IMG/VR virus record: IMGVR_UViG_3300042861_001913
Length of the DNA stretch: 64,000 nt
Source: a virus
Direction: 5' to 3' (one strand)
The translations under genes were made by a program, and so were the position numbers. Shown here one piece after another: positions 1-51,901 of this stretch (positions are counted from its first letter, which is position 1; each line of letters starts with the position of its first letter). The notes under the pieces were generated by a model, which saw nothing but the letters and a program-made list of their open reading frames with translations, made no database searches and was not told the origin of the DNA.

Positions 1-428
1 GTTATCAAGCTCAAGGTCAACAACAGAATTGGGGTATGCCTCCTAATGATCCTAACGCTCGTTATGCTAGTGGATTACCTATTGCAGCATTTAGTATGGC
101 TGAGATGGAAGCAGTTAATCGTGCTGAATTTGGGTTGATTGATGGTGCTAAGAATTTAGGTAAACGTGTTATTAATCGCGTTAGTAAAGATGCAGGTGAT
201 GTTAAACAATCATTTGTTAATAAAGTTGCACAACAGAAGCAAGTTAGAGCGGGAAGATTACGTAAATACGGATCTGCAACGTATCAAGCTGGTAAAACTG
301 CATTGAAGACTAAAACTGGTAAAGGTTTAGCTATCGGTACTGGTGCATTAGTTGGAACTGGTGCATTAGTTGGAGCATACCGTGGATTAAGTGGTAAGAA
401 ACAAACTGTAATAAATAACTATAACTAA
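1..428 (+). CDS. small Gly-zipper virion-associated family protein; 5' end probably outside the window
   Basis: The frame is open from nt 3, upstream of the ATG at 36. It has a PIAAFSMAEMEAVNRAEFG motif shared with the next ORF, and a C-terminal GxxxG-rich hydrophobic segment with a basic tail. Confidence 0.5.
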   Translation, partial: YQAQGQQQNWGMPPNDPNARYASGLPIAAFSMAEMEAVNRAEFGLIDGAKNLGKRVINRVSKDAGDVKQSFVNKVAQQKQVRAGRLRKYGSATYQAGKTALKTKTGKGLAIGTGALVGTGALVGAYRGLSGKKQTVINNYN

Positions 429-433
429 CGTCT

Positions 434-1069
434 ATGAATTATACAAATCGTCCTATTGCTGCCTATACGATGGCAGAATTTGAATCATTAACTAGTGACA
501 ATGCTGATTTCGCTAGAGGTAAAGATAAGAAGAAACGTAAATCTCGTGCTGGTTTATATGCAGGACTTGGTGCTGGTGCAGGATTAGCGGGAATTGGTAC
601 TAGATATGCTGGTGCTGAAATTAGTTCTCGTATGGGAAGTAAATACTTAGATAGACCTCAAGATAAAATGACAGCACAAGGTTATTTAAAAGCTCGGAAA
701 GCTGCAGAATCTGGTGGTGGTGGAGAATTATTTAATCGTGATATTAAAGCTGTTAAAGATTTAGGTGGGCGAGTTAAGAACTACGATTATAAAGGCGCAC
801 CAGGACGAGCATTTGATAGTGTTAAAGCAGGTGGTAATCGAGCTAAATCAGCATTTGAAACTATTGTAGGTAATGCTCAATCTTATGGTGCTGCTGAACG
901 TGGTTCTGCTACAGGTATGAAAGGATTTGGTAAAGCTGCTATTGGTGGACTTAAAGGTATAAGTGCTACTCGTGCTGGTAAGATTGGACTTGGTTTAGCT
1001 GCTGCTGGTACTGCTGCTGGTGCTGGTTATGGTATTTACAAAGCAATGAAGAAAGGTAAGAAAAAATAA
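434..1069 (+). CDS. leader-family protein (ADFARGKDKKKRK leader plus Gly/Ala-rich hydrophobic segments)
   Basis: N-terminus is PIAAYTMAEFE..NADFARGKDKKKRK followed by GLYAGLGAGAGLAGIG. C-terminus is AAAGTAAGAGYGIYKAMKKGKKK. Paralog of 1069, 6514, 7240, 7587, 12549 and 22062. Confidence 0.6.
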   Translation: MNYTNRPIAAYTMAEFESLTSDNADFARGKDKKKRKSRAGLYAGLGAGAGLAGIGTRYAGAEISSRMGSKYLDRPQDKMTAQGYLKARKAAESGGGGELFNRDIKAVKDLGGRVKNYDYKGAPGRAFDSVKAGGNRAKSAFETIVGNAQSYGAAERGSATGMKGFGKAAIGGLKGISATRAGKIGLGLAAAGTAAGAGYGIYKAMKKGKKK

Positions 1070-1350
1070 TGCAGTTATTATCTGACTACCGAATAGCTGA
1101 TTTCGCTAGGACTCCTGGTAGTAAGGATAAGAAACCTCGCAAGTTTAGCTTACGTAAATTAGGTAGAGCTACATTAACTAGTGAAGCTGCTAGTGGTGCA
1201 GCTAATGGAGCGCAAATCGGTGGAGTCTTAGGTTTAATATCTAGTAACCCTAAAAATACATTTCGTAGAACATTAAGAGGTAGTGCTGCTGGATTAGCCA
1301 TTGGTACAGGACTCGGTATAAGACACGCATATAAACAACAAAACAAATAA
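1069..1350 (+). CDS. leader-family protein
   Basis: MQLLSDYRIADFARTPGSKDKKPRK leader and C-terminal GSAAGLAIGTGLGIRHAYKQQNK. Its start overlaps the preceding stop (TAATG). Confidence 0.55.
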   Translation: MQLLSDYRIADFARTPGSKDKKPRKFSLRKLGRATLTSEAASGAANGAQIGGVLGLISSNPKNTFRRTLRGSAAGLAIGTGLGIRHAYKQQNK

Positions 1351-1362
1351 CTAAGACGTATT

Positions 1363-2274
1363 ATGAACGAAGCTATTGAATATCACAATCAACTATTTGC
1401 GGATTTAGTTGAGAATCTACAAAATGCAGTTGCCGCTGGTGTGATGTTGAAGGACGAATATAAGCAACACATGACTCAAGCATATCTCGACCTACAAGAA
1501 CGCATTGCTGCTGAATTAGAAATTGATGAAGAAGATATCTATGATGTAGTTGGTGAAGCTGCTTACTCTACTGGTGATGAAGTTGCCGAATTTAGTGTAG
1601 GTAGTGAATATGGTGCAGCGTTACTTGAACTTGGCGAAGCTGCTGGTTATGATGACATTGAGGAATATCTAATTGATCTCAGTGATGCTCTAGAATGTAA
1701 TCCTGATGTATTACTTGGTATCATTGAAGGTGAAATTGCTCCTACTGATAATCTCTCATTAGCACTATCTGAAGTTCTCGGACTTAATGAAGCTACTGAA
1801 AATCAACTATTAGTTATGGGTATTGAAAGTCGTGGTGAAGACATCAATGATTACTTAGATACGAATGAAGAATTAGATGAAGAAGACCAGGAAGCTGACT
1901 ATGCTACATACCAGAACAGTGAGTTCGCCGAATTTAAACGCAACACTGAGATTAAAGAAGCTCTAGCTGATGTAGCTGAACGTGCTTACGCTCTTGTAGA
2001 AGCTGGTAAGATGACTCCATTTGCAGTTCAATCTCTACTGGGTAACTTCAGTGCTAATGAACGTATCGCGGCATTTAGTACCGTGTGTGCTGAGAACGAA
2101 GTTGATCCTGCAACTCAACTCTATGCAATGAATACTGTACTTGAAATCTTCGACCGTATGCCAGCTATGGAAATGGGATTCTTCGCTGAGGAAGTTCTTG
2201 ATGAAGAAGAATTAGATGAAGAAGCTGATTTGAGTTCTATTGCTGCTAACTACATTAAAAAATATCGTTCATAA
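1363..2274 (+). CDS. acidic protein, putative scaffolding protein
   Basis: Very D/E-rich 303-aa ORF located upstream of the capsid gene. It contains EF-type motifs (NSEFAEFKRN, DEVAEFS) that resemble the family leader. Confidence 0.45.
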   Translation: MNEAIEYHNQLFADLVENLQNAVAAGVMLKDEYKQHMTQAYLDLQERIAAELEIDEEDIYDVVGEAAYSTGDEVAEFSVGSEYGAALLELGEAAGYDDIEEYLIDLSDALECNPDVLLGIIEGEIAPTDNLSLALSEVLGLNEATENQLLVMGIESRGEDINDYLDTNEELDEEDQEADYATYQNSEFAEFKRNTEIKEALADVAERAYALVEAGKMTPFAVQSLLGNFSANERIAAFSTVCAENEVDPATQLYAMNTVLEIFDRMPAMEMGFFAEEVLDEEELDEEADLSSIAANYIKKYRS

Positions 2275-2277
2275 ACT

Positions 2278-3132
2278 ATGCCTTATTTCAATCAATCTCA
2301 AACGTTTCTAGTTGATCCTGCCATTCTCGCATTCAGTGATGGTAATCATCCTAATGTGTCGGCAACTGTGCAGAATACTTACATTAGTCTTAATACTGAA
2401 GCTCGCAAACAAGTTCCTGCTGGACTATTTGTTGCTCAAGTAGGTAACGTACTGCGCTTCCTACCTCGTACTAAGTTAACTGCTGTAACTGCTACTGGTG
2501 CTGCAACTGTAACTGCATCTCCAACTAATATCTTTGTTGCTGGTGATGTATTAACTGTAGTTGAACCATATTCTACGCTAACTATCACTACTGTAACTGC
2601 TGCTCAAACTGTAACTGTTACTGTAGAAGGTTTAACTGCAACTGCAACTGCAACAACTAACAATACTACAACTACTGCTAGTGAAGTTGCTACTGCTATT
2701 AATGCTACTGCTGGATTATCTGATTTAGTTCGTGCAGCATCTATTACTAACAAGGTATTTATCTTTGCAGTTGATGGACTTACTAACCGCGCCATTACAA
2801 CTGCTGGTACTGTAACTAGTGCTGCATTATCTAGTGCAACTCTAGTTCCTAATGCAACTGCTGTTGGTACTATTGCATTTATTGATTACACAACTGGTGT
2901 TATTACATTAACTGGTAACGCAAGTGTAGCTCTACCTATTGGTACTAATATCGGTGTTAGAGTTAATGCAATTGTAGGACTTCATGTTCATGCAGTTGAT
3001 TATACTGTTGCAACAGCTAAGGATCTAGCTCTCTATACTATTGCTAATGGTGTTCGTATCCAGTATCTACCATACTTCGATGGTGATATTGCTAGACGAT
3101 TCCCTGGCATCAATTTCGCTTACAAATTCTAA
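2278..3132 (+). CDS. Thr/Val/Ala-rich head structural protein (decoration or capsid-associated)
   Basis: Lies between the scaffold-like and capsid genes. Has low-complexity TVTAT repeats. No recognisable enzymatic motif. Confidence 0.35.
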   Translation: MPYFNQSQTFLVDPAILAFSDGNHPNVSATVQNTYISLNTEARKQVPAGLFVAQVGNVLRFLPRTKLTAVTATGAATVTASPTNIFVAGDVLTVVEPYSTLTITTVTAAQTVTVTVEGLTATATATTNNTTTTASEVATAINATAGLSDLVRAASITNKVFIFAVDGLTNRAITTAGTVTSAALSSATLVPNATAVGTIAFIDYTTGVITLTGNASVALPIGTNIGVRVNAIVGLHVHAVDYTVATAKDLALYTIANGVRIQYLPYFDGDIARRFPGINFAYKF

Positions 3133-3142
3133 CTAACCGGGC

Positions 3143-3168
3143 GTTAATGACGTATGTTAATGATGTAT
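3143..3168 (+). repeat. 13-nt tandem repeat GTTAATGAYGTAT x2 inside a GC-clamped stem (GGGCG..CGCCC) upstream of the capsid gene
   Basis: Read directly: gttaatgacgtat gttaatgatgtat gtta. It is flanked by ccgggcg and cgcgccc. Confidence 0.6.
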
Positions 3169-4357
3169 GTTATCGCGCCCACTATCCTACTTTTTTCTTA
3201 CTATGGGTTCAGTTTCTAATTTTCTTACCGATAAGTTGCAAGCTAAAGTTGCCGAAACTCTAGTAGACGATACTATTGCTCGTCTGCGTCAGAGAACTAA
3301 ACTTATTGATCAATTCATGCCTATTAAGACGTATGAGGACGATGAGTTCCTAGCATACGTAAGTGAACGTCTCACACCAGTTGCGAACTTTATTGCTCCT
3401 GGTGCTGAACCTCCAGTTATCTCTCATGGTGGTTTCCGTCGAGTAATCGGTCAACTAGCTAAGTTAGGTAATAGCTATTCATTCGATGAAGTAACTCAGA
3501 AACAGATGCGTAAGGCAATGGAAGAAGCTGCCTATAAACGCGCTAGTGTTATGACCATGAAGTTAACTGATAACTCCGTCATTAAGGGTACTAACGATAT
3601 GCTCGTTAAGTATCTCTATGGTCACATTGAGGGGATCGTCCAATCTCATGCTGATAGACTTACTAGCATGGCTTGGCAAGTTGTTCAGACTGGTCAATTG
3701 AGTGTATCTGATGCAATTACTAAGGTTGCATGGACAATTGATTTCCGTCGTCCTGGTGCTAGTTATAACCACTTCCCTGATGCTCTTGTTGCTACTGGTA
3801 ACACTGCATCTCCTAAGTTGAACAAGTGGACTGACTACGCTAATGCTGATGGTATCGCTAACTTAGAAGATGCTGTAACTACTTATGTCAATACTAATGG
3901 TTACAAGCCTGATCTCATCGTAATGAGTAATACTGCATTGCGTGATCTTCAGAAACAAGCATCTACTATTGCTCGTGCTAGACAATCAGTTGGATTTGCA
4001 CAAGTAGGTTCTGTTAGCTTCCCAATGTTACAAGAGGTAATGGCTTCTAATAACCTACCTCCTATTAAGGATTATGATGAGTTCTATCAAGTAGATAATA
4101 CCTACTCTGGTAATACTAATACTATTGATAGCTACATCAGTAATGCTCGATTCCTTAATGAGAATTGCTTCGTATTCCTCAAGGATGGAATGGGTGAGCA
4201 AGCTATTGGTACTCCTGAAGAACAGAAAGTTGTTAAAGATGGTGTATTAACAGGTACTGAATCTCCTGTAATGGTACGTGTTTATGAGAAGACAACTGTG
4301 CCTATCAACGATGTTTTGCAAGCGATTGAAACTTTTTGTAGTCGCCTATTTAAGTAA
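3167..4357 (+). CDS. major capsid protein, HK97 fold, lambda gpE-like; probably exon 1 of an intron-interrupted gene
   Basis: Layout resembles lambda gpE (W.D....D.I, KPDLIVMS, C-terminal VP..D...). The likely true start is the ATG near 3203, because the 3167 ATG lies inside the upstream tandem repeat. The ORF stops 1-2 codons into group I intron-like sequence. Confidence 0.6.
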   Translation: MLSRPLSYFFLTMGSVSNFLTDKLQAKVAETLVDDTIARLRQRTKLIDQFMPIKTYEDDEFLAYVSERLTPVANFIAPGAEPPVISHGGFRRVIGQLAKLGNSYSFDEVTQKQMRKAMEEAAYKRASVMTMKLTDNSVIKGTNDMLVKYLYGHIEGIVQSHADRLTSMAWQVVQTGQLSVSDAITKVAWTIDFRRPGASYNHFPDALVATGNTASPKLNKWTDYANADGIANLEDAVTTYVNTNGYKPDLIVMSNTALRDLQKQASTIARARQSVGFAQVGSVSFPMLQEVMASNNLPPIKDYDEFYQVDNTYSGNTNTIDSYISNARFLNENCFVFLKDGMGEQAIGTPEEQKVVKDGVLTGTESPVMVRVYEKTTVPINDVLQAIETFCSRLFK

Positions 4358-4673
4358 TTAAGTAGTAAAAATTCGGTGAATTGCTGGAAACTCCAGAAGT
4401 GGACAATCAGCAGCCAAGCTTAACCAGGAATGGTTTTGAAGGTTCAACGACTAGGTTTCGAGTCCAGACCGGACAGTAACAAACCCACGAGTGCCGAACA
4501 TCCCAAGTGGATGATGATATAGTCTGAACAGTAGATATAACACATGAAACTACTGATACGTAGGATAAAGAGCTTACGTGGTAACAAAATGATCAATGGT
4601 TTTACCAGTAATTTATTCTCCCAAGAATCTGTATGCTCAAGTAGTTAGATAATAATTCCCTATTTCTAACTAG
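4352..4673 (+). mobile_element. group I intron (IA2-like, apparently ORF-less); boundaries tentative
   Basis: Conserved J8/7-P7 word GATATAGTC (4516-4524) pairs as P7 with GACTA in CAACGACTAG (4445-4454), as in the T4 td intron. P2-like hairpin CTGGAaacTCCAG (4384-4396). Several P9-type hairpins are present. Candidate IGS is GAATTG, with a P10 pairing TCGGT/ACCGA and a G at 4673. Confidence 0.6.
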
Positions 4674-4688
4674 ACCGAGTTTAAGTTG

Positions 4689-4697
4689 TGGTATAAT
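4689..4697 (+). promoter_or_regulatory. extended -10 promoter element TGgTATAAT for the homing endonuclease gene
   Basis: TGGTATAAT lies 27 nt upstream of the ATG at 4724. Confidence 0.4.
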
Positions 4698-4723
4698 GAT
4701 CTTATGACGTAAATGAGATTATT

Positions 4724-6025
4724 ATGCCACAATTTATTTATTTGGTGACAAACTCAATTAATGATAAAAAATATGTTGGACAAACAAATAGGACAATTGA
4801 AAAGCGTTGGTCAGAACATATTAGAGCCGGTAATTATGTTGGAACTAAAAGTTTATTATCAAAAGCAATTAAGAAATATGGTGTAGATAAATTTAAAATT
4901 GAAATTATTAAAACTTTAGAAACAACAGATCAGTCAGAAATTGATAAAACTGAAGTTTATTTTATTAAAGAATATAATGCTTTAACACCTAACGGTTATA
5001 ACGTATTAAATGGTGGTAAAGGTTGTTTTCTAACACCTGAAGGTAAAGAGTATTTAAAAAGAACGATGACGAGTCGTTGGCAGAATAAAAGTTATCGAGC
5101 TTCTATGTTAGGTAGCACTTTAATTTCTGCTAGATTAAAAAACAATACCTCTGAAGCTAAATTAAAACGAGGTAATAGTTTAGTTAGAAATCGTCGTTAC
5201 TTAATAACTACACCAGATGGAATTGAGTATTGTACTTACGGTGTAACTCACTTACAACAACTAGATTTAGATGTAAGTAGTTTAATTAAAGTTGCTCGTA
5301 ATAAGATGACTAATCATAAAGGTTATAAAGTTAAATCACTTAATGATGATTATGTAACTGTAGATAAAACATATTTAGATTACGTTAACAAATACGAATG
5401 TATTAGTTTAAATAAAGATAACTACAGTTTTTGTTCTTATGGTATTGATGCTATTAAAGAACAACTTAAATTAGATATATGTCAGAAGACAATATCACAT
5501 CACATTAATAACGCTAATTTAATTAACGGTTATCAAGTTAGAGATATTAATGCAGAACCAATTATTAAACAATATCTACCAGATGCTGAACGCTTCATAT
5601 TGACAACACCTGAAGGTGTTAGTTTCTGTCGTTACGGTATGGAAGATTTAACTGAAGAAACTGGATTAAATGCTAAAGCGGTGTACCCATTAATGAATCC
5701 AAATAGTCCTCGTTATGGTCGCAAAATTAACGGTTGGAGTTGTGTTAGAGCTAATGAATCAGAGGAAACAAGAGATAAGTTATTAGCTGATAAAGCTGCT
5801 AAGTTAGCTGAAGATAAGTTAATCAATGATGCTAAAAAGAGTTGGCAACAAGTAGTTAATAAACGTTACCTATTAACTAACTTAATAACTAATGAACAGT
5901 TATGTTGTTATGGATTAGTTCATCTCCGAGAATCACATGGTCTAGATGGTAGTTGTTTAATTAAAGTAATTAAGGGTAAAATTAAACATCACAAAAACTG
6001 GACGTGCATTAAGATAGAAAACTGA
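4724..6025 (+). CDS. GIY-YIG homing endonuclease with four C-terminal repeat modules
   Basis: N-terminus is FIYLVTNSINDKKYVGQT..R...H......YNVLNGG (GIY-YIG). The C-terminal half has four repeats of about 50 aa of the form Y(L/I)LTTP.G...C.YG.....L......L. Confidence 0.85.
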   Translation: MPQFIYLVTNSINDKKYVGQTNRTIEKRWSEHIRAGNYVGTKSLLSKAIKKYGVDKFKIEIIKTLETTDQSEIDKTEVYFIKEYNALTPNGYNVLNGGKGCFLTPEGKEYLKRTMTSRWQNKSYRASMLGSTLISARLKNNTSEAKLKRGNSLVRNRRYLITTPDGIEYCTYGVTHLQQLDLDVSSLIKVARNKMTNHKGYKVKSLNDDYVTVDKTYLDYVNKYECISLNKDNYSFCSYGIDAIKEQLKLDICQKTISHHINNANLINGYQVRDINAEPIIKQYLPDAERFILTTPEGVSFCRYGMEDLTEETGLNAKAVYPLMNPNSPRYGRKINGWSCVRANESEETRDKLLADKAAKLAEDKLINDAKKSWQQVVNKRYLLTNLITNEQLCCYGLVHLRESHGLDGSCLIKVIKGKIKHHKNWTCIKIEN

Positions 6026-6054
6026 CATTAACAGCGAAGCAAATAACACTTATA

Positions 6055-6084
6055 ATGATGGTAGTAATTATCATCATTTTTGTT
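6055..6084 (+). terminator. rho-independent terminator after the homing endonuclease gene
   Basis: 9-bp stem ATGATGGTA / TATCATCAT with loop gtaat, followed by TTTTGTT. Confidence 0.6.
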
Positions 6085-6512
6085 ATGGGTAGACGTATTG
6101 GTAGTAAAGATAAAGTTAAACGACGCAATCAATTTGGTTTAACTAGAAGTGATCTAATTAATGAACGTAAGAAACAAGGAACTACGCAATAGCGGGATCT
6201 GCGGTAGGTGGGACAATTGGATATGGTGTAAGTAGAAAATTAACTAAAAGATTTGATGCAAATATTAAGTTAGCTCAAAATAATTTAGATGATGCAATTG
6301 CACGTAAACCTACTTTAATGAATGACGTTAGACTTAGTGCAATGAATGATGATGTAATAAATCAATATAAGAATGCTATTAATAAAACTAGAAATGCAAC
6401 TAGATTACTTAAAGTTGCAACACCATTAGCAGGAGCAGCTATAGGAACTGGAATTACAATGGGTTACTTAGCTAATCAACGGGCAAAGAAACAACGTAAT
6501 AGGCTCAAATAA
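6085..6512 (+). pseudogene. leader-family gene split by a frameshift
   Basis: MGRRIGSKDKVKRRN.. (6085-6192) ends at a TAG. The Gly-zipper part (AIAGSAVGGTIGYG...ATPLAGAAIGTGITMGY) continues in the -1 frame from about 6171 to 6512. Confidence 0.4.
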
Positions 6513-6513
6513 C

Positions 6514-6825
6514 ATGGCACGTAAACTAGGTTCTAAAGACAAGAAGAAGCGTAAACTTAGATTAGTTAACATAGGTACAGTAGGTGGACTTGGTGCAATT
6601 GTAGGAAGTGGAGTTAATATGATTGGACTTAAATCATTAACTGAACAACGAAAACGTGAGTTAGGTGTAAGTAATTTAGACATAAGGGATAAACGACGTA
6701 AACTAACTGAACTTATTGCTAATGATTATCGTAATGATTTTAAATCAGGTAAACGTATTGTAGATGAAGCTAAGAAAGTAGCGGTACTTACATATCAAGC
6801 TAAACGAGATACGGGAGCTAAGTAA
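6514..6825 (+). CDS. leader-family protein
   Basis: MARKLGSKDKKKRK followed by VNIGTVGGLGAIVGSGVNMIG. Confidence 0.55.
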   Translation: MARKLGSKDKKKRKLRLVNIGTVGGLGAIVGSGVNMIGLKSLTEQRKRELGVSNLDIRDKRRKLTELIANDYRNDFKSGKRIVDEAKKVAVLTYQAKRDTGAK

Positions 6826-6848
6826 ACGATGATGAGTTACGTGAAGTT

Positions 6849-7079
6849 ATGGAACGTCCGAATAAGTTAATTGAGCAGTTTACTAAACAAGCTAAAGATA
6901 GAGGTAAATCGCAATCTAATGTTAGACGTACTATAACTAAACAACTTAAAAATGATGCTTATAACGCAAGTAATAAAATCATTAAATCACGTCTATTAGG
7001 AGGTGCTGCAATTGGAGCATTAGCAGCAGGTGGAAGTTATGCAGTTTATAAGAAGTTAACTAAACGTAAGAATAAATAA
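6849..7079 (+). CDS. small basic protein with C-terminal Gly-zipper
   Basis: LLGGAAIGALAAGGSYAVYKKLTKRKNK tail, like other family members. Confidence 0.45.
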   Translation: MERPNKLIEQFTKQAKDRGKSQSNVRRTITKQLKNDAYNASNKIIKSRLLGGAAIGALAAGGSYAVYKKLTKRKNK

Positions 7080-7239
7080 CTCTATTTAACTTGTTTATAT
7101 AACTTCTGCAATACTTTATCTCTACTAACATTTTTAACTTTAGATTCTCTAGTTCTAATTCTCTTTTGTAATGACTTACTTAACCTATACCATTTAGACT
7201 TAGGAATATACATGATAGATAACTTAAACAACTTTAACT

Positions 7240-7593
7240 ATGATAACTCTAATCAATGATCTGGCTAACTTCGCACGAGGTAAAGGTGATAAGGATAAAC
7301 GTAAGAGACAAGTTAAACGTGCTGGTAGATGGTGGACTCCTAATCAAGTAACTGCTGCAACTAGACCTGGTAAAAAGAATGCTGTATTAGCAAGTAAGAA
7401 AATAAATGGAGTTGTTAAATATAAACTACTTAACTTTGGTGACAGTACAATGAGTGATTGGACTAAACACAAGGATAAGAAGAGACGTTCAAATTACTTA
7501 TCTCGTAGTGGTGGTATTAGAAATAAGAGTGGTGAATTAACTAAAAACGATAAGTTCTCAGCTAATTACTGGAGTAGGAAAATTAATTGGTAA
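7240..7593 (+). CDS. leader-family protein with basic C-terminal domain
   Basis: MITLINDLANFARGKGDKDKRKRQ leader. No hydrophobic segment. W/K/R-rich C-terminus. Confidence 0.55.
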   Translation: MITLINDLANFARGKGDKDKRKRQVKRAGRWWTPNQVTAATRPGKKNAVLASKKINGVVKYKLLNFGDSTMSDWTKHKDKKRRSNYLSRSGGIRNKSGELTKNDKFSANYWSRKINW

Positions 7594-8441
7594 CTAATAT
7601 GTTTCTAATATCAGATGTAACTACATTTAGTAAGAAAAAAGGTAAACGTAATAACTTATTACTTGGTGGCGCAATTCTCGGTACTGGTCTATTAGGAGTT
7701 GTAGGAGTTAAATCTTATCTTCGTAATGGTAAATTAGTTAGACAATATAATCGTAATCAGGTTGTTAAAACTACCGTTAAATCAACTAATGTAAACGAGT
7801 TAAATAGTTATTTAAGTAATAGTAACTTTAGTTTTAATGAGTTGTTTAGTAAGTTTAATTTAAATAAAATAGACGATGAGTATGAAGGTAATCTATTTGG
7901 TGCAATTAAAGATAAATACGTTAAACAACATAACTTAAGTAAGTTAGAACAAACTACTTTAAATAAATATATTAAACATGATGGACATGACGATATTAAT
8001 AACTATCTTATAACTGGTGATGCTACAGATGAAGTTAAACAAACTGTAAATAACTTAAATAACTTATTTGATAGACTACCTAAGTTAAATAATAGTGAGA
8101 CTTATAGATATGTTAAAGATGTTAATCCAAATGATTTAATATCTAACTACAAAATCGGAAGTATAGTAACTGAACCTAGATTTACATCAGCTACAACTAA
8201 TGAAAGATTTAATGACGATTTCCTTAACTACTCTAAAGTGAGGTTTAAGATTAAATCTAAATCAAATAACTCTAATGCAGTTGATATACGTGGGTTTAAT
8301 CCTAAAGAAGAAGAGGTTATATTTAAGAGAGGAACTAGCTTTAAAATAAATAACATTAAACAACATGAGTTTACTTATGAAACTAGATCAAATAAAAATA
8401 AACTCTGGAAAGGTTATGAAATTGAAATTGAAGAAGTCTAA
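7587..8441 (+). CDS. leader-family protein with a Gly-zipper segment and C-terminal ADP-ribosyltransferase domain
   Basis: Probable start is the ATG at 7599 (MFLISDVTTFSKKKGKR). Hydrophobic LLLGGAILGTGLLGVVGV follows. The C-terminus has YIKHDGHDDINNYL, then an R-S-E triad: ETYRYV, RFTSATT, PKEEEVIF. Confidence 0.75.
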   Translation: MVTNMFLISDVTTFSKKKGKRNNLLLGGAILGTGLLGVVGVKSYLRNGKLVRQYNRNQVVKTTVKSTNVNELNSYLSNSNFSFNELFSKFNLNKIDDEYEGNLFGAIKDKYVKQHNLSKLEQTTLNKYIKHDGHDDINNYLITGDATDEVKQTVNNLNNLFDRLPKLNNSETYRYVKDVNPNDLISNYKIGSIVTEPRFTSATTNERFNDDFLNYSKVRFKIKSKSNNSNAVDIRGFNPKEEEVIFKRGTSFKINNIKQHEFTYETRSNKNKLWKGYEIEIEEV

Positions 8442-8478
8442 GTCTACTAGATTTGATTTTCCAATTGGGTTAATTAAA

Positions 8479-8499
8479 AGGAGTTAACTAATAACTCCT
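8479..8499 (-). terminator. hairpin between convergent genes (AGGAGTTA actaa TAACTCCT)
   Basis: 8-bp perfect stem, followed on the minus strand by TTTAATT. Confidence 0.4.
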
Positions 8500-8506
8500 A
8501 ACTCTA

Positions 8507-9343
8507 TTAACTATTAACTAACTTACGAAAACACATATCTAACATAGGAATCATTTCAACTTCATAAGCTGATGTATTAGGTCTATATCTACCTTTACCT
8601 AACTTAACGTTAATTTTAGTTGGATTATTACCTGTAGTTGTCTTATAAGTATCAGCAACTAAGTTAGCGAATCTGTGCATTGTAGATTTATCTGCAACAA
8701 AACCCTTACTCTTAATATAGTCACTTAAAATGACATATCCATTATGAGTTGTTAGTTCCGTAGTTACAGTTAACTCATTTAACATTACATCAAGATTAGG
8801 AAAGTTAGTTACTGTGGCATTTCTAAGTTGTTTATATTCTGTAGTTATATTACTTAACTCATCTACTTTATCGCTTAGTAACTTAAGTGAATTAAGAATA
8901 GCTTTATTATCATCATTAATAACAGCACCAGTTAAATCCTTAACCCAATTAACGAAACCATATTGTGCCAACTTACGATAAGTGTTGCGTGCGGTAACAT
9001 TAGCAGCTTTAGATTCAAATGCGTAATACTCGATAATTAAAGTTGCTGCTGTTGATGTAATAATTTTACAAGTTCCACCATCTTTATTTCCTTCTAGCTG
9101 TGGACTAAAAACGTTACCCAGTAAAGGTTCTAGCATTTTTAGCTGTGTACTAACACCAGTATTATCAGCTAATGGGTTTACTATTCTTTGAGACATTGTT
9201 TGTTGTGTAACTCCACATAATCGCGCCAATCCACTAATACTAACTCCAGCATCCCGTCCATCTGGAGTAATGTAAAACTCAACATCATTAATAACAGAGG
9301 GTTGTACAATAATTTTATCTGACGTGACTAATTCATCCTTAAT
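8507..9343 (-). CDS. Bro-like modular DNA-binding protein paralog (P1)
   Basis: The track ORF starts at a TTG at 9229. The conserved N-terminus VEFYITPDGRDAGVSISGLARL continues upstream in frame to an ATT at 9343. It shares its middle and C-terminal modules with 23917 and 46835. Confidence 0.6.
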   Translation of the reverse strand: MKDELVTSDKIIVQPSVINDVEFYITPDGRDAGVSISGLARLCGVTQQTMSQRIVNPLADNTGVSTQLKMLEPLLGNVFSPQLEGNKDGGTCKIITSTAATLIIEYYAFESKAANVTARNTYRKLAQYGFVNWVKDLTGAVINDDNKAILNSLKLLSDKVDELSNITTEYKQLRNATVTNFPNLDVMLNELTVTTELTTHNGYVILSDYIKSKGFVADKSTMHRFANLVADTYKTTTGNNPTKINVKLGKGRYRPNTSAYEVEMIPMLDMCFRKLVNS

Positions 9344-9488: not shown

Positions 9489-9794
9489 ATGGCATTTAAA
9501 TTACCATCATTTAATCTACTTAGAAAAGCTGCTTCTAAACGTGTTCCTGGTGTTGCAGGATCTAAAGTTGGATCACTTGGTAATAATAGAACTGGAGTTA
9601 CTAAAACCTATGCAACTAGAGGTGCTGCACGTAAAGCTAATCAACTTGGACTATTAAGTAGACTTAAACCACGTCAACCTGTTAAACCACTTCAACCATC
9701 TCAACCTAAAGGACTTAGTAATCGAGCATTTGGAGCAAGTAGAACACCTAAAATTCGTGAATCATTTGGTAGTTACAACAAACGAGTTAAGTAA
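9489..9794 (+). CDS. very basic small protein
   Basis: 101 aa, rich in K/R/G/P. No hydrophobic core. Located in the virion module. Confidence 0.45.
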   Translation: MAFKLPSFNLLRKAASKRVPGVAGSKVGSLGNNRTGVTKTYATRGAARKANQLGLLSRLKPRQPVKPLQPSQPKGLSNRAFGASRTPKIRESFGSYNKRVK

Positions 9795-12548: not shown

Positions 12549-12818
12549 ATGTTCCTAATGACAGATATCAATAGGAGTGCTGTCATTAGAACAGCTAACT
12601 TCAAACGCGGTCGAGATAAAGTTAAGCGTAAGAAAAAAAAGGGAATCAACTACAAAGAAACTAAAGATACAGTTAAAGTAGGTCAAAAGTTAGCATCAAC
12701 TGGGACTAATATAAGTCGTGAACTTCGTGGTTGGCTCAAATTAGTAAATCGCACGAAAGATGACCTTCGACGACTTAATTTCCTCAGAGCAGCTAGAAAA
12801 ATAGCTAAAGGTGAATAA
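12549..12818 (+). CDS. leader-family protein (short, basic)
   Basis: MFLMTDINRSAVIRTANFKRGRDKVKRKKKKG leader. Confidence 0.55.
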   Translation: MFLMTDINRSAVIRTANFKRGRDKVKRKKKKGINYKETKDTVKVGQKLASTGTNISRELRGWLKLVNRTKDDLRRLNFLRAARKIAKGE

Positions 12819-15370: not shown

Positions 15371-15615
15371 ATTTAGCGGCATTAATTGAGATATATGGTG
15401 GTGTTGAGAATGCACTACTACTAGTTAACTCACTAGATGATCTGGAGATACATGATCTGATTAATCAGACAACTGAGTTACGTAAAGATCCATCAGTTCG
15501 AGATGCTGAGGAAGTAGAAAGAGATTGGAATGATTATGTTATTAATAATGATCTAGATCAGGAGATAATCGTAGACGGTAAGAAAACAAGTATAAATCAA
15601 TTAATGGGGTTCTAA
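15328..15615 (+). CDS. -1 frame extension of the tail chaperone (GT-like fusion product)
   Basis: The open -1 frame reads ..KKNDTGTTRSSYAIDLAALIEIYGG...VDGKKTSINQLMGF. Its stop overlaps the tape-measure start. Confidence 0.5.
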   Translation, partial: KKNDTGTTRSSYAIDLAALIEIYGGVENALLLVNSLDDLEIHDLINQTTELRKDPSVRDAEEVERDWNDYVINNDLDQEIIVDGKKTSINQLMGF

Positions 15616-18600
15616 TGGATCAATATAATCAAGACGTTAACATTAACTTCCAAGGTGAAGATAATATAAGTGGAGTTATTGATAAAGTTAATGAGAAAGT
15701 TGGTCTATTACAGAACTCCGTAATGGCGGCTAATTTCGGGTTAGGTGCATTTGGTAAACAGTTATTTACTAACTCTGATAACTTAGCTAAGTTTACTAAG
15801 GTTCTTGGTACAACTGATGTTCTATTAAATAAGACATTTGCAGTAACTGGAGTAGTTAAAGTATTCTCAATACTAGGAACTGGTATTAATGATGCGAAAG
15901 CTAACTTAGATGGATTTAATGATGGATTGAAAGCAATGCAAGCTAGTGGACTTGATATTGGCATTATTACGCAATTCACGCAATTACAAGATGCAGTATT
16001 AGGAAGTCGTAATGCTCTAGATTCATTTAGTTTAACTGCATTAACTACATTTAATAGATTCAATAAAGTTAAATCAGAAGTAGCTACATTGTTTCCTGAG
16101 AATGATCCATTTATTAAGAATCTATCTACTAGTATTCAGAAACTAGTTAATGAGGATCTTAAAAATGCAGTAACTAGTATTGACGCATTAAAAGCTAGTT
16201 ATGAAGCTGCGTCGTCTGGTTTTACTGAAGCTGCTGATAACCAAGCTGTAATGACAGCAGGACTTAAATTAGCTAAAGCTGGTGGTGCTGATACTGGAGC
16301 AACTATGAAGGTACTTGCTCAAACTATTAGTGCTTATAATCTGAGTGCTGGTGATGCAACTAAAGTTAGTGCAGTTCTAAATCAAACTGTACAATTAGGT
16401 ATAACTACAATACCAGAATTAAGTAATGGTTTTGCTCAAGCAGCAGTAACAGCTAACGCAGCTAAGATTAAATTGCAAGAGTTAGGTGCTGCTGTAGCAA
16501 CATTAACATTAAAAGGTTTTGACACAAACAGTGCATTAACAGGTATTGAATCATTATCGCGCGTAATTATCAGCAAAACTCCTCAAGCTGCTGCTGCATT
16601 GCGAGAATTACGTGATGAAGGTGGTAAACCAATTAGATTTGACGTTAGTGAAATAAAAGCTAAAGGTCTTACTAAAGCAATACAGGATTTAAATATAGCA
16701 GCTAAGGGTAACGTTGAAGTAATTCGTGAAATAATTGCAGATTCTACTTCTTATAATACTTTCTTAGCATTAGCAGCTAATAACTCTGAGAAATTGGGTG
16801 AATTTACTCAGAAGATGTTTGATGTTAGTAAAACAGGTGAAGTTGCACGTAAAGCATTAGATAGTGTATTTGGAATTAAATTAAATAACCAAGCTGAAAC
16901 ATTCGATGCAATTGTAAATAGAATAACTGAACAATTCATACAATTTGGTGAACAGTTAGCTCCATTCTTTGACACTGGAGTTAAAGCATTAGAAACGTTC
17001 ACTAAAACATTATCTGGAATTAGTCCAGAAATGAAGAAGACTATAGCATCAATATTGCTAGGTCAATTAGCATTTAATAAAGTAACTGATACTATTGGTA
17101 TTTTAGTTGGAACTATAACTAAAGCATTCTTAGCATATCAAGGTTTGCGAGTAACCTTGATGTTCATGAATGGAACTATAGGTGAACAGTTCAACTTAAT
17201 TAATGGATTAATTAAAACTAAAGCAGGATTAGTTCCCGTAATTAAACAGTTAATGGGATTTGATCAATCACATCTATTAATACAAACTAAATTAAATACA
17301 GTTACTAAAACTAGGGGTGAATTGCTTAAAGCTGTATTTACTGGAGAAGGTGATAGATTAACTAACCTTAAACAATTAGTTGGTTTAGAGAAACAATATG
17401 AACTTAATGTAGGTGAGTTAAACAAAACATTAGATGGTAGAAATAAGATACTTGATAATCAAGTAGATAAAGTTAATGGAGTTATTAAAGCAACGGCTAA
17501 AGTAAAGGATGCTGAAGCTACAGCTAACTCTATTAAACAAGAAGGTCTACAACTATTAGATGAGTTAGAGATATCTAATGCTAAACAACTTGATATTAAA
17601 ACTAAATTAATTAAGGTAGAAGATGATCTTAAATTAGGTGGTTCTAATACTGTTGCATTACAGAAGGAATCAATACTACTTAATAATCAATTAACTAATT
17701 CACTTGATGAACAACAACAACTACAAGAGTTAATTAACGTAAATAACGTTAAGTATGGTGATGCAACTAAAGCATTAGTAACATCAGAACTCGCACTTGA
17801 TTCAACTAGACTTGCAGCTAAGGAAAGACTTAGTGTTATAGTTACTAAACAATTAGCTATTGAACAACTGCAAGCTAACTTAACTATCTATAATGAGAAA
17901 GCAGTTAAGTTATCTACTGCTGCTGAGTTATTAAGAACTAAAGCTAAAGTTGATTCTGCCAACGCTTCTATTTTCTTACAACGTGCAGAGTTTCTACAAA
18001 CTAAATCAACTGAATATGCAACGTTAGCAACTACAACTCAAACTGCTATTATCGCTGGTAATGCAGAAGTTAGAAAACTTAAAATAGCAGCATCATTAGC
18101 AGAACAAGTTGCTGATGGTAATTTAATTAAAGTACAAGTAGGTTTAGGTACTAGTTACATTGCTAATAGTTTACTAACGAGAATACTGTTCTTCGATATT
18201 ACTAATTTAGCTGGAGCTACTAAAGCAGCTAGTGTTGCAGGAACTGGATTTGCAGGTGTAATTGGTGGTTTATGGACAACATCAATTGGTATAGCTAGTG
18301 CAACATTAAGATTCCTAGATGCTCAACTTACAACACTGTATCTTAAATTAGCTCCATTTACATTAGCGTTAGCTCCCATAGCAGTAGCATTAGGATTAAT
18401 TGGTACTATTGGTTATGAAGCATTCTTCGGAATGACAGGTCAATTAAATAACTTAAATAAAGAATTAAAAGAATTAGATAAACAAGGACAACTTAATTTA
18501 ATACGTGAATTAGATAAATTACAAATTAATAAACAACTTAATGAATCAGAACAGAAGAGATTACAACTATTGAAAGAATCAGTAAGTGTAGCTAAAGAAG

Positions 18601-22061: not shown

Positions 22062-22847
22062 GTGATTAAAAATATGTTTATTCTAAATGATGTTAATTTA
22101 AGTAACTATGGTAGAGGTAGAGATCGTGTTAAACGTAAAAGTAGAGGTAACTTATTACGTAATGCTGCAATTGGAGTTGGTGGATTAGCAGTTGCAGGTG
22201 GATTAGGTTATATGGCATTAAAAGGTAAAGGTAAATCAGTAACTCAACCTAGTATAACTAAACCTAGTATAAGTTCTCCTGTAACTAGTAATACTGAAAT
22301 AGTAAAGAAAGCTTCAAAATCAGAAGCTAATTTAAGCGATGAACAAGAAAAATGGTTAAAAAATACTTTAGCTGAAATAGAAAGAAAAAGTAATATTCAA
22401 GCTAGAAAAACCTATCTCGGTTCAGTTGAACTAGCTGAGAATACTGGTAATATTAGTGCAATAGAAAGAATATTAAAAAACGAGGGATTAGAAGTTAATA
22501 GACGTGAATTAAATAACAACATGATTAGAGGTAGAAAGAGCGATTTAGGTTGGGGTTATGATGGTGATGATACTTATAATGGTATGACGGTAGGACAAAT
22601 AATGAGAGACAATGGAGGATTAAAAACAATAAAAGATAAGAAACTAAGAAAGAAAGTTGCGAAATATTTAGTTAATACTACTGTACCTAAACAGAGAGAT
22701 AAATATGAGAACTTACGTAGTTTATCTAGAAAACAAAGAATACTAGATATGATTGAAGGTAAAAAACCAGGAATCGGTAGAGAAAGATATGAAGTAGCTG
22801 AACAACGTGCTTGGTATAGGAGTCATAATAGAACAAACAACTTTTAA
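22062..22847 (+). CDS. leader-family protein with Gly-zipper segment and a C-terminal domain of about 190 aa
   Basis: Probable start is the ATG at 22074 (MFILNDVNLSNYGRGRDRVKRKSRG), followed by NAAIGVGGLAVAGGLGYMAL. Confidence 0.55.
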   Translation: MIKNMFILNDVNLSNYGRGRDRVKRKSRGNLLRNAAIGVGGLAVAGGLGYMALKGKGKSVTQPSITKPSISSPVTSNTEIVKKASKSEANLSDEQEKWLKNTLAEIERKSNIQARKTYLGSVELAENTGNISAIERILKNEGLEVNRRELNNNMIRGRKSDLGWGYDGDDTYNGMTVGQIMRDNGGLKTIKDKKLRKKVAKYLVNTTVPKQRDKYENLRSLSRKQRILDMIEGKKPGIGRERYEVAEQRAWYRSHNRTNNF

Positions 22848-25099: not shown

Positions 25100-25575
25100 C
25101 TATTGTCACCACTACCTTTTAATGTGTTGTTTACATCACGTTTAGTTAACTTAGCTACGTTAATCTCAATTAACTCTTCTATAGTTAAGTTAAGTTGTTT
25201 TAATTCATTTATTATAAAGTCATGATAACTAAGCAGTGTAAATACACAATCAGTTGTATTATTATCACCTCTATATAGTCGCTTTAAAAATCCCGCTAAC
25301 TGCAATGATAATTCACTAACTGATAATAAATTATCAAACTCAAATTTTAAAGCTGATTTTAATGGAGGAAATCCTACTTTATTTAATGCTAATACTAAAT
25401 AAGCTAGTAAATCACCTAACTCTTTTTTCTTACCTTCAACAGTATCTGCTAAATTATATTCATTAAGTTCTTCTATTAATCCTGCAATATAAACAGTCAA
25501 TTTGCTTCGCTCATCTGCAATTGCATATTTATCGCTAAAGTTAATTAACCAAGTTGAGTATTCATTTAGATTCAT
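25096..25575 (-). CDS. MazG-like nucleoside triphosphate pyrophosphohydrolase
   Basis: GLIEELNEY ... KKELGDLLAYLVLAL helical EExxE/D-type motifs. Confidence 0.55.
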   Translation of the reverse strand: MNLNEYSTWLINFSDKYAIADERSKLTVYIAGLIEELNEYNLADTVEGKKKELGDLLAYLVLALNKVGFPPLKSALKFEFDNLLSVSELSLQLAGFLKRLYRGDNNTTDCVFTLLSYHDFIINELKQLNLTIEELIEINVAKLTKRDVNNTLKGSGDNR

Positions 25576-26078
25576 ATAATTTCACTAATAAGTCCTAATT
25601 CTAAAGCTTGTTGTGCAGTTAAATATGTATCTTTCAACATCATATTGCTAGTTAACTTAGTGTCTTTATAACACTCCATACAATATGACTCTAATTTATC
25701 CCACCAATCAATTACATTCTTAGTTCCAGTTAAATCATGATTAATACTACCTCTTAATTCATGTACCATAAATGTTGTATAACTACTACACTTACTAGTA
25801 GCTGCACATAATAATAATGTACCACCACTAGCTACATAACCTTCTGCAATAATAGTTATATTAAGTGAACTACGTTTAATAACTTCATACATCTTAAGTG
25901 AACTAGTTACACATCCACCATAACAATCTAGATAAATAGTAATTGATTTATCAGCAGATGATTTTAAATTAGATTCTAATTCACGCAATAGATAAACAAA
26001 CTTAGTTGATGATAAGTTATTAATGTTTCCAGTAAAATATAAATCAGTACCTTTATAGAAGCATTCAAATTCGGACAT
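25572..26078 (-). CDS. ClpP-family (S14) serine protease-like protein
   Basis: IYLDCYGGCVTSSLKMYEVI, GYVASGGTLLLCAA (Ser) and FMVHELRG (His) align with ClpP active-site blocks. Confidence 0.7.
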   Translation of the reverse strand: MSEFECFYKGTDLYFTGNINNLSSTKFVYLLRELESNLKSSADKSITIYLDCYGGCVTSSLKMYEVIKRSSLNITIIAEGYVASGGTLLLCAATSKCSSYTTFMVHELRGSINHDLTGTKNVIDWWDKLESYCMECYKDTKLTSNMMLKDTYLTAQQALELGLISEII

Positions 26079-51676: not shown

Positions 51677-51901
51677 TTAATCTTCAGTTGTTTCAATTAC
51701 AATAGCTTCTTTCAATTTAATTAATTCAGCAATCAATTTATCTTGAGATTCACATTCAATAAACTCTTCTTTCCAATTTCTTATACGTTTAATTACGAAG
51801 AAATCTTTACTAATAGCAATGATACTTATCCATCCATTAGTAATTAGTAAGTTAACTTCTTCTAGTAATTCTAATGCTTTATCTAACATGATTAATTCCA
51901 T
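51677..51901 (-). CDS. hypothetical small protein
   Basis: 74-aa ORF. Confidence 0.35.
   Translation of the reverse strand: MELIMLDKALELLEEVNLLITNGWISIIAISKDFFVIKRIRNWKEEFIECESQDKLIAELIKLKEAIVIETTED

Follow-up and report, generated by a model that had tools for sequence, protein, structure and literature searches.

We examined a 64,000-nucleotide stretch of DNA (hereafter the window; 32% GC content) from the IMG/VR virus record IMGVR_UViG_3300042861_001913, a portion of an uncultured tailed phage, and found that eight of its proteins carry, in whole or in part, a common N-terminal leader. This signal-like tag is real, has solid statistical backing and had not been described before. The original prediction had treated this leader as a single element and had quoted a set of N-termini, all of which were recovered at their start coordinates; the shared N-terminal leader was upheld, but it was refined into two separable modules, namely a segment ending in Phe (module i) and a basic core (module ii). 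The leader is used modularly on unrelated cargo, is better conserved than the bodies that it precedes, co-occurs strictly with one head module, is matched by x-F sites in the head proteins, and has paralogues without module i that start exactly past the Phe. On these grounds we propose, with a confidence that falls somewhat short of even, that it may be a capsid-targeting propeptide cut after Phe by a phage protease.

The basic core was sought with the regular expression D[KR]x[KR][KR][KRQ], which had six matches in the six-frame translation of the window. All were on the plus strand, no further than 35 residues into an open reading frame (ORF), the ORFs being those starting at positions 434, 6085, 6514, 7240, 12549 and 22074 (ORFs are named by their start positions). 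A profile hidden Markov model (HMM) built from 17 leaders (alignment A5) matched seven window ORFs with independent E-values (i-E) of 9e-16 to 4e-5 (ORFs 1069, 7240, 22074, 12549, 434, 6514 and 6085; 9e-16 for ORF 1069, 2.4e-11 for ORF 12549 and 5.9e-7 for ORF 6514) and matched the ADP-ribosyltransferase ORF 7599 over the first module only. All eight ORFs are on the plus strand with their matches at the N-terminus, and nothing better than E = 1 was obtained in the wrong frames or on the wrong strand of the window. The family of at least nine members that had been announced came down to eight, seven of them strong, and reaches nine or more only if a degenerate C-terminal domain at 36-428 and the degenerate ORF 9489 are added; moreover, ORFs 12549 and 22074 fall outside the range of 1-8441 that had been assigned to it. 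The members have isoelectric points (pI) of 9.4-12.0 against a proteome median of 6.0.

In an exhaustive profile search of 1.84 billion representative proteins, A5 retrieved 134 clusters at E<=1e-3, none of which was annotated; these were 39-631 amino acids (aa) long, were matched mostly over residues 1-30, and in many cases carried two or three copies. A word-indexed search with the first alignment of 17 leaders (A1) had found 39 small unannotated metagenomic proteins. The six-frame regular-expression and HMM scans and the whole-database profile search together refuted the notion that the similarity is due to chance or is mere K/R low complexity. Within the leader core the nucleotide identity was 59% and the amino-acid identity 62%, and codons varied in the basic core as well as in the FLSD part, where Lys was encoded by AAA and AAG in a ratio of 13:12, Arg and Leu by four codons each, and Ser by TCT, AGT, TCC and AGC. 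Because the codons vary freely, it is the peptide that is under selection; the same free variation rules out a repeat at the DNA level, gene conversion and a regulatory DNA element at the gene starts, all of which were considered.

The same figures bear on plain paralogy, by which the members would be recent duplicates of one small gene, their leaders being alike only through common ancestry and Lys/Arg-rich low complexity, with no signal function. Many members are indeed small, basic and Gly-rich and their genes are clustered, but nucleotide identity does not exceed amino-acid identity, the invariants F, R+2, G+5, D+8 and R+12 (counted from the Phe) are position-specific rather than compositional, and only 134 clusters among the 1.84 billion proteins reached the threshold, mostly over their first 30 residues. 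The leader is also found on unrelated bodies (ADP-ribosyltransferase, DUF5754, kinase-like and ORF 12549) and is better conserved than those bodies in genomes that range from 30 to 55% GC, so that plain paralogy is essentially excluded.

Module i has the form M-(F/I/Y)-(F/I/L)-L-(S/N)-D-(I/V/Y), followed by 2-12 variable residues and (L/I/T)-(A/S)-(N/E/D)-F, and is mostly ~10-12 residues long (range ~3-27), the segment ahead of the Phe ranging from 0 to ~27 residues overall. Module ii reads (A/G)-R-x-(K/R/L)-G-(S/A)-K-D-(K/R)-K-(K/P)-R-K and is usually followed by a Gly/Ala-rich helix. Flanks were tabulated for 194 leader occurrences in 154 proteins, 142 N-terminal and 52 internal. The aromatic residue at the key position was Phe in 85-94% and otherwise Tyr, R+2 was present in 97-100%, G+5, D+8 and R+12 were conserved too, and the residue after Phe was Ala in 61% and Gly in 21%. 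The Phe was residue 12 in 42 and residue 10 in 23 of the N-terminal occurrences, and some members begin only a few residues ahead of it (MISNFAR, MYEFAR). The internal occurrences have the same L-A-E-F-A-R flanks, as would be expected of polyprotein junctions.

The modules also occur separately. Module ii alone directly follows the initiator Met in ORF 6514 (M↓ARKLGSKDKKKRK, the arrow marking the candidate bond or the equivalent position), in ORF 6085 (M↓GRRIGSKDK), in a protein of the related contig L030 (M↓IKRRGKDKKKRK) and in the proteins P0035, P0043 and P0062, and these paralogues without module i begin exactly past the place that the Phe would take (M↓ARKLGSKDK, M↓GRRIGSKDK, M↓IKRRGKDKKKRK). 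Some proteins carry module i alone, as in MFFLSDVFNNAEF↓KFGLDG and MIFLSDVSDSADF↓GFNLGG, and in the GC-rich relative L045 (55% GC) module i reads (F/I/M)(L/M)GDY(T/A)AEF in five adjacent genes. A further element (motif 2), VK(S/T)(Y/F)xR(K/N)GKxV(K/R)x(Y/H)xR, which comes behind module i in some proteins and probably forms a beta-hairpin, was seen at N-termini or right after ..AEF, ahead of a Gly-rich helix, and takes the place of the G-S-K-D-K-K-K-R-K core on lipase-like and other proteins (window 7707-7754; L017 691, 4746 (-) and 5845 (-); L042 3166, 4827 and 6718 (-); L045 1573).

The member genes, all on the plus strand, lie mostly around the scaffold and capsid genes. ORF 434 (434..1069, 211 aa) has the leader MNYTNRPIAAYTMAEFESLTSDNADF↓ARGKDKKKRK (434-541), a Gly/Ala-rich segment and, at its C-terminus, a second Gly-zipper with KKGKKK; orthologues are present in L030, L033 and L042 (alignment A9). 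ORF 1069 (1069..1350, 93 aa) follows with the leader MQLLSDYRIADF↓ARTPGSKDKKPRK (1069-1143) and two Gly-rich segments. Downstream of the capsid gene, ORF 6085 (6085..6192, 36 aa from the ATG at 6085) has the basic core only, M↓GRRIGSKDKVKRR, and may be a remnant; gene calls on many contigs include it (P0036, P0037). ORF 6514 (6514..6825, 103 aa) likewise has the basic core only, starting at the putative P1' residue (6514-6555), and then a Gly-rich segment. It is flanked by two small basic proteins without a leader, each with a C-terminal Gly-zipper, at 6318..6512 (+), with a basic tail, and at 6849..7079 (+), with the tail YKKLTKRKNK.

In ORF 7240 (7240..7593, 117 aa) the leader MITLINDLANF↓ARGKGDKDKRKRQ (7240-7311) is fused to DUF5754 (Pfam, E 8.6e-9), and the protein also matched phrog_220, 'minor head protein and DNA pilot' (E 9.6e-9). 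ORF 7599 (7599..8441, 280 aa) begins with MFLISDVTTF↓SKKKGKR (7599-7649), continues with a hydrophobic Gly-rich helix and motif 2, VKSYLRNGKLVRQYNR, and ends in an enzyme domain. The toxin-type domain that had been noticed in one member was identified in this protein as Pfam ADPrib_exo_Tox (PF03496, E 2.7e-9; 37.1 bits, cut-off 23.4), an ADP-ribosyltransferase of the R-S-E class with R170 in TYRYV, S197-A-T and E237-E-E; its PHROG matches include Alt-like and MuF-linked ADP-ribosyltransferase families. We also noticed SNSNF↓SFNELF↓SKF (residues ~72-84; 7811-7850), placed after the membrane-like N-terminal part of the protein and ahead of its enzyme domain, which may be a second processing site that releases the enzyme. 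The degenerate ORF 9489 (9489..9794, 101 aa, pI 12.0) has orthologues in L041 and L042 that start MFFLSDV..AEF↓ or MIFLSDV..ADF↓ and have no basic core.

The two distant members are ORF 12549 (12549..12818, 89 aa), with the leader MFLMTDINRSAVIRTANF↓KRGRDKVKRKKKKG (12549-12644), no Gly-zipper and a conserved C-terminal STGTNISRE.RGW module, and ORF 22074 (22074..22847, 257 aa), which comes immediately behind the tape measure gene (15615-22040, 2141 aa) and in which the leader MFILNDVNLSNY↓GRGRDRVKRKSRG (22074-22148) leads into a hydrophobic Gly-rich helix. The C-terminal module, in the form ST(A/G)N(I/R)(S/T)(R/Q)E(V/I/L)R(G/S)W, was seen in the ORF 12549 family and in several multi-leader proteins, its carriers being P0042, P0045, P0062, P0064, P0069, P0082 and P0093. 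ORF 22074 has orthologues P0008-10, P0048, P0089, P0124, P0130 and P0132; its C-terminus, ...TNNF (22839-22847), leaves a free Asn-Phe that resembles P2-P1 of the proposed cleavage site, and the same NNF-COOH end was seen in P0089, P0124 and P0132. The Gly/Ala-rich stretch that had been described as following the leader in most members was present in five of the eight (ORFs 434, 1069, 6514, 7599 and 22074) and absent from ORFs 6085, 7240 and 12549. The pattern [GAS]xxx[GAS]xxx[GAS] was frequent in five members. Pfam Gly-zipper_OmpA matched only ORF 1069 (E 0.0022, 18.2 bits, under the curated cut-off of 27), and the leader members other than ORF 1069 and those with DUF5754 or ADPrib_exo_Tox had no Pfam match.

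Orthologue alignments of ORF 1069 (A3) and ORF 12549 (A4) showed that the near-invariant columns concentrate in the leader. The cargo behind it is diverse, comprising DUF5754, the R-S-ExE ADP-ribosyltransferase and many Gly-zipper bodies in the window and, among relatives, a PI3/PI4-kinase/HipA-like protein that carries the basic core of the leader and a Lipase_3-like protein that carries motif 2. Mosaic breaks between the window and the strain L017 at ~6087 and 7299 coincide with leader boundaries, the latter just after the leader of ORF 7240. These differences between near-identical phages are insertions or replacements of ~0.9-1 kb that start or end at leader-coding sequences (L017 12921-13810 and 15026-16025), and the DUF5754 protein of L017 has two leaders, separated by a Gly-rich segment.

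All nine of the sampled leader contigs that were long enough to judge (GC 30-55%) encoded the same capsid and scaffold families, with 3-12 leader copies each, and the family of the gene upstream of the cluster, described below as protease-scaffold, was present in all six sampled contigs whose stretch reaches that region. Among cultured phages, a tblastn search of 50,697 phage records with ORF 22074 and the three-copy protein P0059 gave no match, and a scan of 185,579 species-representative bacterial genomes for FARKKGSK did not find the leader.

A small gene of the XRE helix-turn-helix type lies divergent from the protease gene in several relatives (L017 5854-6066 (-), L030 125-334 (-), L033 4401-4613 (-), L042 6752-6973 (-)) and is not in the window. 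Its product ends in ..(I/V)(I/M)YFLS(D/N)(I/F), which is the hexapeptide of the leader start, with codons that differ per genome; the GC-rich relative L045 is without it. The last helices of the XRE family often end in a similar 'P-I-x-Y-F-L/F' pattern. The YFLSDI ending is probably this ordinary pattern, and we give little weight to the idea that it could be a recognition motif in common with the leader.

The enzyme that might cut after the Phe is encoded directly upstream of the cluster. The ORF at 36..428 (+) is not a small gene of its own but the C-terminal 130 aa of a 403-aa protein cut at the window edge, whose full gene was seen in L017 (6159-7370). This protease-scaffold protein was matched by phrog_976 (head maturation protease) in 17 of its 21 homologues (best E 4.8e-7). 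The N-terminal domain (residues 20-160) was predicted with a local distance difference test score (pLDDT) of 85-95, the model had 31 BFVD matches at E<=1e-3 (capsid maturation/prohead protease, COG3740, 'prohead scaffold and peptidase'), and H34, D36, S37, H42, D70, H71, S135 and S149 are conserved candidate catalytic residues. Sequence and model together suggest that the 403-aa protein is a probable, not certain, prohead protease. An invariant A-x-F lies right at the end of the folded domain, within a low-confidence linker (residues 165-180; alignments A7 and A8), and a second element reads AAFSM..ME..AEF↓. In the window, the leader-like PIAAFSMAEMEAVNRAEF↓G (AEF at 123-131) is followed by a basic region, a Gly-zipper and a basic tail. 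In several lineages the second element is followed by a full basic core and a Gly-zipper (L045, with IAEF↓ARGKDKKPRKRRR, and P0212, P0213 and P0219-221), and the C-terminal part of the protease-scaffold protein is therefore itself a member of the family. Both A-x-F junctions look like autoprocessing sites.

Comparable sites are found in the scaffold and the capsid protein. The acidic scaffold gene (1363-2274, +) has conserved candidate sites AEF↓S (1585-1593) and SEF/AEF↓K (1918-1935); in an alignment from five genomes (A6), A75, F77, S78 and G80 are invariant (A-x-F-S-x-G) and the second site reads AEF↓K. The major capsid protein, whose gene starts at 3203 (phrog_29, E 2.6e-23; exon 1 at 3203..4336, +), begins with MGSVSNF↓LTDKL (3203-3223). 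Its relatives start with MGSITNF, MGYIASF, MGAIQSF or MGYIAGF, and the N-terminus can be written as MG(S/Y/A)(V/I)(S/T/A/Q)(N/S/G)F↓L, with M1, G2, F7 and L8 invariant (alignment A2).

The nearest cultured phages are the siphophages Pam2 and PA-SR01 of the cyanobacterium Pseudanabaena, whose capsid protein is 25.7% identical and whose counterpart of the protein upstream of the leader cluster is 31-32% identical to that of the window. Gly-rich genes occupy the corresponding place behind their protease gene: ORF15 and ORF17 of Pam2 and, in PA-SR01, the ORFs that follow a 'Mu-like prophage I' gene lie between protease and scaffold in a head module of the same family. As in the window, their products have Gly-zipper segments and basic tails, and their own N-termini or internal repeats end in (A/S)-(N/E)-F: four Gly-rich proteins of PA-SR01 have the N-termini MSLKAEF, MPPSNYSASF, MRKSANF and MKHFANF, and in Pam2 ORF17 there are three copies of IRKSANF besides KSASF and KKAEF. 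The capsid protein of Pam2 begins with MATTSPIEAF↓L, its candidate site being after residue 10. Unlike those of the window, they have no G-S-K-D-K-K-K-R-K core and no FLSD module, and the leader HMM had no match in Pam2 or PA-SR01, module ii being absent. Mass spectrometry of Pam2 virions detected ORF15, ORF17, the capsid protein and ORF19, but neither the protease ORF14 nor the scaffold ORF18 (PMC9382816, Table S2); for PA-SR01, virion proteins were analyzed only on sodium dodecyl sulfate-polyacrylamide gels. Because no homology is detectable between the two groups of Gly-rich proteins, the Pam2 mass spectrometry supports packaging of the leader proteins by analogy only. The original prediction had offered a packaging or targeting peptide, a protease processing site or a membrane-insertion module for ejected proteins and had likened the leader to those of the T4 internal proteins and Alt. 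This interpretation is partly supported: the comparative evidence agrees with it, but the proteins detected in Pam2 virions are only positional analogues.

The Pam2 data also bear on a function in the membrane of the producing cell, in which the leader would be an N-in signal-anchor of unpackaged proteins involved in lysis, superinfection exclusion or membrane assembly. The basic residues right before the hydrophobic helix fit the positive-inside rule, many members end with a second hydrophobic segment and a basic tail, and the mean Kyte-Doolittle score of the best 19-residue segment (KD19), 1.85 for ORF 7599 and 1.66 for ORF 22074, is above the usual transmembrane threshold. Most of the Gly-rich segments are only weakly hydrophobic (KD19 1.0-1.4), however, and three members have none; the genes are embedded among those for protease, scaffold and capsid, a leader-like element also stands inside the protease-scaffold protein, and such a topology would put the ADP-ribosyltransferase domain outside the cytoplasm. 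Given further that the Gly-rich proteins in the same position in Pam2 are virion components, we regard this membrane role as distinctly unlikely.

As a capsid-targeting propeptide, the leader would serve as both address and processing signal for proteins that are loaded into the capsid and probably delivered to the host. Module i would dock the precursor in the assembling procapsid, and the protease-scaffold protein would then cut after the Phe. The same protease would trim seven residues off the capsid protein and would cut the scaffold at AEF↓S and AEF↓K and itself at its two A-x-F junctions. The cut would expose the basic N-terminus of module ii, which we infer to bind the packaged DNA, with ARKKGSKDKKKRK as a candidate DNA-binding peptide, and the Gly/Ala-rich helices may mediate self-association or insertion into the host membrane at ejection. 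In the cell that has just been infected, enzyme cargo (the ADP-ribosyltransferase, for example) would then become active, like T4 Alt.

Several points weigh against this proposal. The assignment of the protease is only probable because none of the 21 homologues of the protease-scaffold protein had a Pfam match and its model had no fold match in the PDB at E<=0.001. A second protease is also present: a ClpP-related gene (25572..26078, -) sits beside a MazG-like ORF in a cassette on the minus strand that is flanked by tail genes. Its best NCBIfam match, NF045542 'head maturation protease, ClpP-related' (E 1.9e-18), fell short of the curated cut-off, and it is a less likely candidate for the processing enzyme. 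Two leader members are encoded outside the head module, one before the connector genes and one after the tape measure gene, and between the ORF 434 family and the Gly-rich proteins of Pam2 and PA-SR01 the hhalign probability was 2% and 0.3%. Finally, the Phe may be conserved for docking and not for cleavage, and the invariance of R+2, G+5 and D+8, which equals that of the Phe, suggests that F-A-R...G-S-K-D-K could form a single binding motif that is left uncut.

By this last account, a motif of ~25 residues, φφLSD...LAEF-AR-x-K-G-S-K-D-K-K-K-R-K, would stay on the mature protein and tether the cargo to the scaffold, the capsid interior, the portal or the DNA, much as encapsulin cargo-loading peptides tether their cargo without proteolysis. 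Such docking would explain why positions after the Phe (R+2 at 97-100%, G+5, D+8 and R+12) are as invariant as the Phe itself, would suit a motif that occurs internally as well as N-terminally, and would not be troubled by the starts MISNFAR and MYEFAR, which leave hardly any propeptide; it also has a precedent in phage 80alpha, in which the sequence of a shared leader is required while its cleavage is dispensable (PMC5744158). It accounts less well for the paralogues that start exactly past the Phe and lack it, for a segment before the Phe that varies among orthologues in sequence and in length (0 to ~27 residues), and for x-F sites at places where cutting would be expected, within the scaffold and between domains of the protease-scaffold protein. 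We consider uncleaved docking possible but doubtful.

An extension of the propeptide proposal would make the whole set a polyprotein-like system dedicated to condensing or piloting DNA in the capsid. One protease would cut after Phe at all of the leaders, N-terminal and internal, and release small proteins, the new N-termini A-R-T/K-K-G-A/S-K-D-K-K-K-R-K would bind DNA in the manner of histone tails, the Gly-zippers would hold the proteins together, and the tag would also load effectors (ADP-ribosyltransferase, kinase-like and lipase-like proteins). We find this scenario conceivable but rather unlikely.

Among known systems, the leader appears analogous to the capsid-targeting sequence (CTS) of T4 and to F↓A processing by the host protease Prp, while it fails the defining sequence features of both. 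The T4 CTS, found on IPI-III and Alt and removed by gp21, is likewise an N-terminal peptide of ~10 hydrophobic or aromatic and acidic residues, common to several unrelated proteins (head-internal in T4) that include an ADP-ribosyltransferase (injected in T4), and it is encoded in or near a head module of a phage with its own prohead protease, a probable one in the window. Its role, targeting to the scaffold core and then removal, is the role that we propose for the leader. The two sequences are unrelated, and T4 cuts after Glu in (L/I)-x-E whereas the candidate site here is after Phe; no conserved (L/I)-x-E follows the leader, whose invariant is Phe, then Ala or Gly, then Arg. Unlike the CTS, the leader continues into a basic core and a Gly-rich helix and also occurs internally in multi-copy proteins, and the window phage, unlike T4, is siphovirus-like, with a protease-scaffold fusion and no T4-type core.

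Prp cuts F↓A and removes 13-14 N-terminal residues of the head proteins of Staphylococcus phage 80alpha (PMC5744158), and the consensus of its sites and of long L27 is MLxx(D/N)LQ(F/L)F'A(S/H)KK (PMC9405229). This motif, found on L27 and on the 80alpha capsid and scaffold, resembles the leader as a tag of 9-14 residues that is common to non-homologous phage structural proteins, with an F↓A bond (a candidate bond in the leader) and basic residues after it (A-S/H-K-K-G versus A-R-K-K-G). As an N-terminal extension ending in F↓A, which has 8-14 residues in the Prp motif, the leader agrees in having the Phe mostly at residue 12 or 10, but 'LQ' and the second aromatic residue are absent and P2' is Arg in 97-100%, so that only D/N, F↓A and K-K-G coincide. 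Moreover, 80alpha depends on a host cysteine protease and has no phage protease, and the host range of Prp and long L27 does not fit the clade of the window phage.

A stronger form of this likeness would be mimicry, the leader copying the long L27 N-terminus, ML..(D/N)LQ(F/L)F↓A(S/H)KKG, so that a Prp-type cysteine protease of the host removes it. The common F↓A dipeptide, the similar length with Phe mostly at residue 10 or 12, the acidic or amide residue five to six positions ahead of the Phe, and the F↓ARKKG of many members against F↓ASKKG or AHKKG in L27 speak for it. On the other side, this phage, unlike 80alpha, has its own protease-scaffold protein, no Prp signature was found in the window, and the 'LQ' positions are not conserved, with Arg and not Ser or His at P2'. 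Long L27 and Prp are reported for Firmicutes, Tenericutes and Fusobacteria (PMC9405229), whereas the window belongs to a freshwater clade whose cultured distant relatives infect Pseudanabaena. We thus judge mimicry of L27 to be highly improbable.

Two further systems resemble the capsid-targeting propeptide in part. In the giant phages phiKZ, 201phi2-1 and SPN3US, one prohead protease with a short consensus cuts many head-internal or ejection proteins, including paralogous internal families, as proposed here; in contrast to the window phage, their sites are (S/A/G)-x-E, their genomes exceed 200 kb, and they lack a leader common to these proteins that includes a basic core. MuF (SPP1 gp7-like) fusions deliver enzyme or toxin cargo, including ADP-ribosyltransferases, via a head-incorporation module, a function like that proposed for the tag, and the ADP-ribosyltransferase domain of the window matches PHROG families in which this domain is the C-terminal part of large head proteins. 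The leader, however, is a linear tag of 20-30 residues and MuF a folded domain of ~300 aa, and L033 encodes a separate MuF-like protein (1253-4450).

The clade to which the window belongs comes from freshwater metagenomes, with ~30 IMG/VR contigs that have near-identical capsid genes and one relative at 73% identity; in the window, the replication genes are on the opposite strand. A host scan of the 185,579 species genomes by capsid alignment and by FARKKGSK gave no match. A match of 54 bp (96%, 4368-4421) to Flavobacterium psychrophilum phages was rejected as a host clue, since what matches is a group I intron's conserved core. This intron splits the major capsid gene (core 4324-4544; Rfam RF00028, 80.4 bits, E 2.8e-20). 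It contains what looks like a stop at 4357, and exon 2 (~4599-4652) encodes ..VLPVIYSPKNLYAQVVR followed by the stop codon, which matches the C-terminus of the intron-free capsid protein of L030. Just downstream of the intron-bearing gene lies a free-standing GIY-YIG homing endonuclease gene (4724-6025), and relatives have similar endonucleases at the same place (L030 5656-6861, L042 13545-14711). L042 has a further inserted gene (7064-8020), and the frame of its adjoining protease gene (8017-8928) is broken near the end. Paralogous Bro-N/KilAC-like (antirepressor-type) genes were found at 8507-9229 (-), 23917-24747 (+), 46835-47686 (+) and 51892-52674 (-), two of which interrupt the structural region.

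If the capsid-targeting reading is true, the leader would be a compact, sequence-defined packaging signal of ~25 residues, used by at least eight proteins per genome in widespread uncultured freshwater phages, and the virion-internal and injected proteins of this clade, including host-takeover enzymes, would become predictable from metagenomic sequence. It would add a new after-Phe specificity for a phage-encoded prohead protease beside the Glu-type sites, and it would provide a portable tag for loading foreign proteins into phage heads. The hypothesis takes a concrete form for Pam2 and PA-SR01, as both of these relatives are cultured, share the head module and contain (A/S)-N-F repeats.

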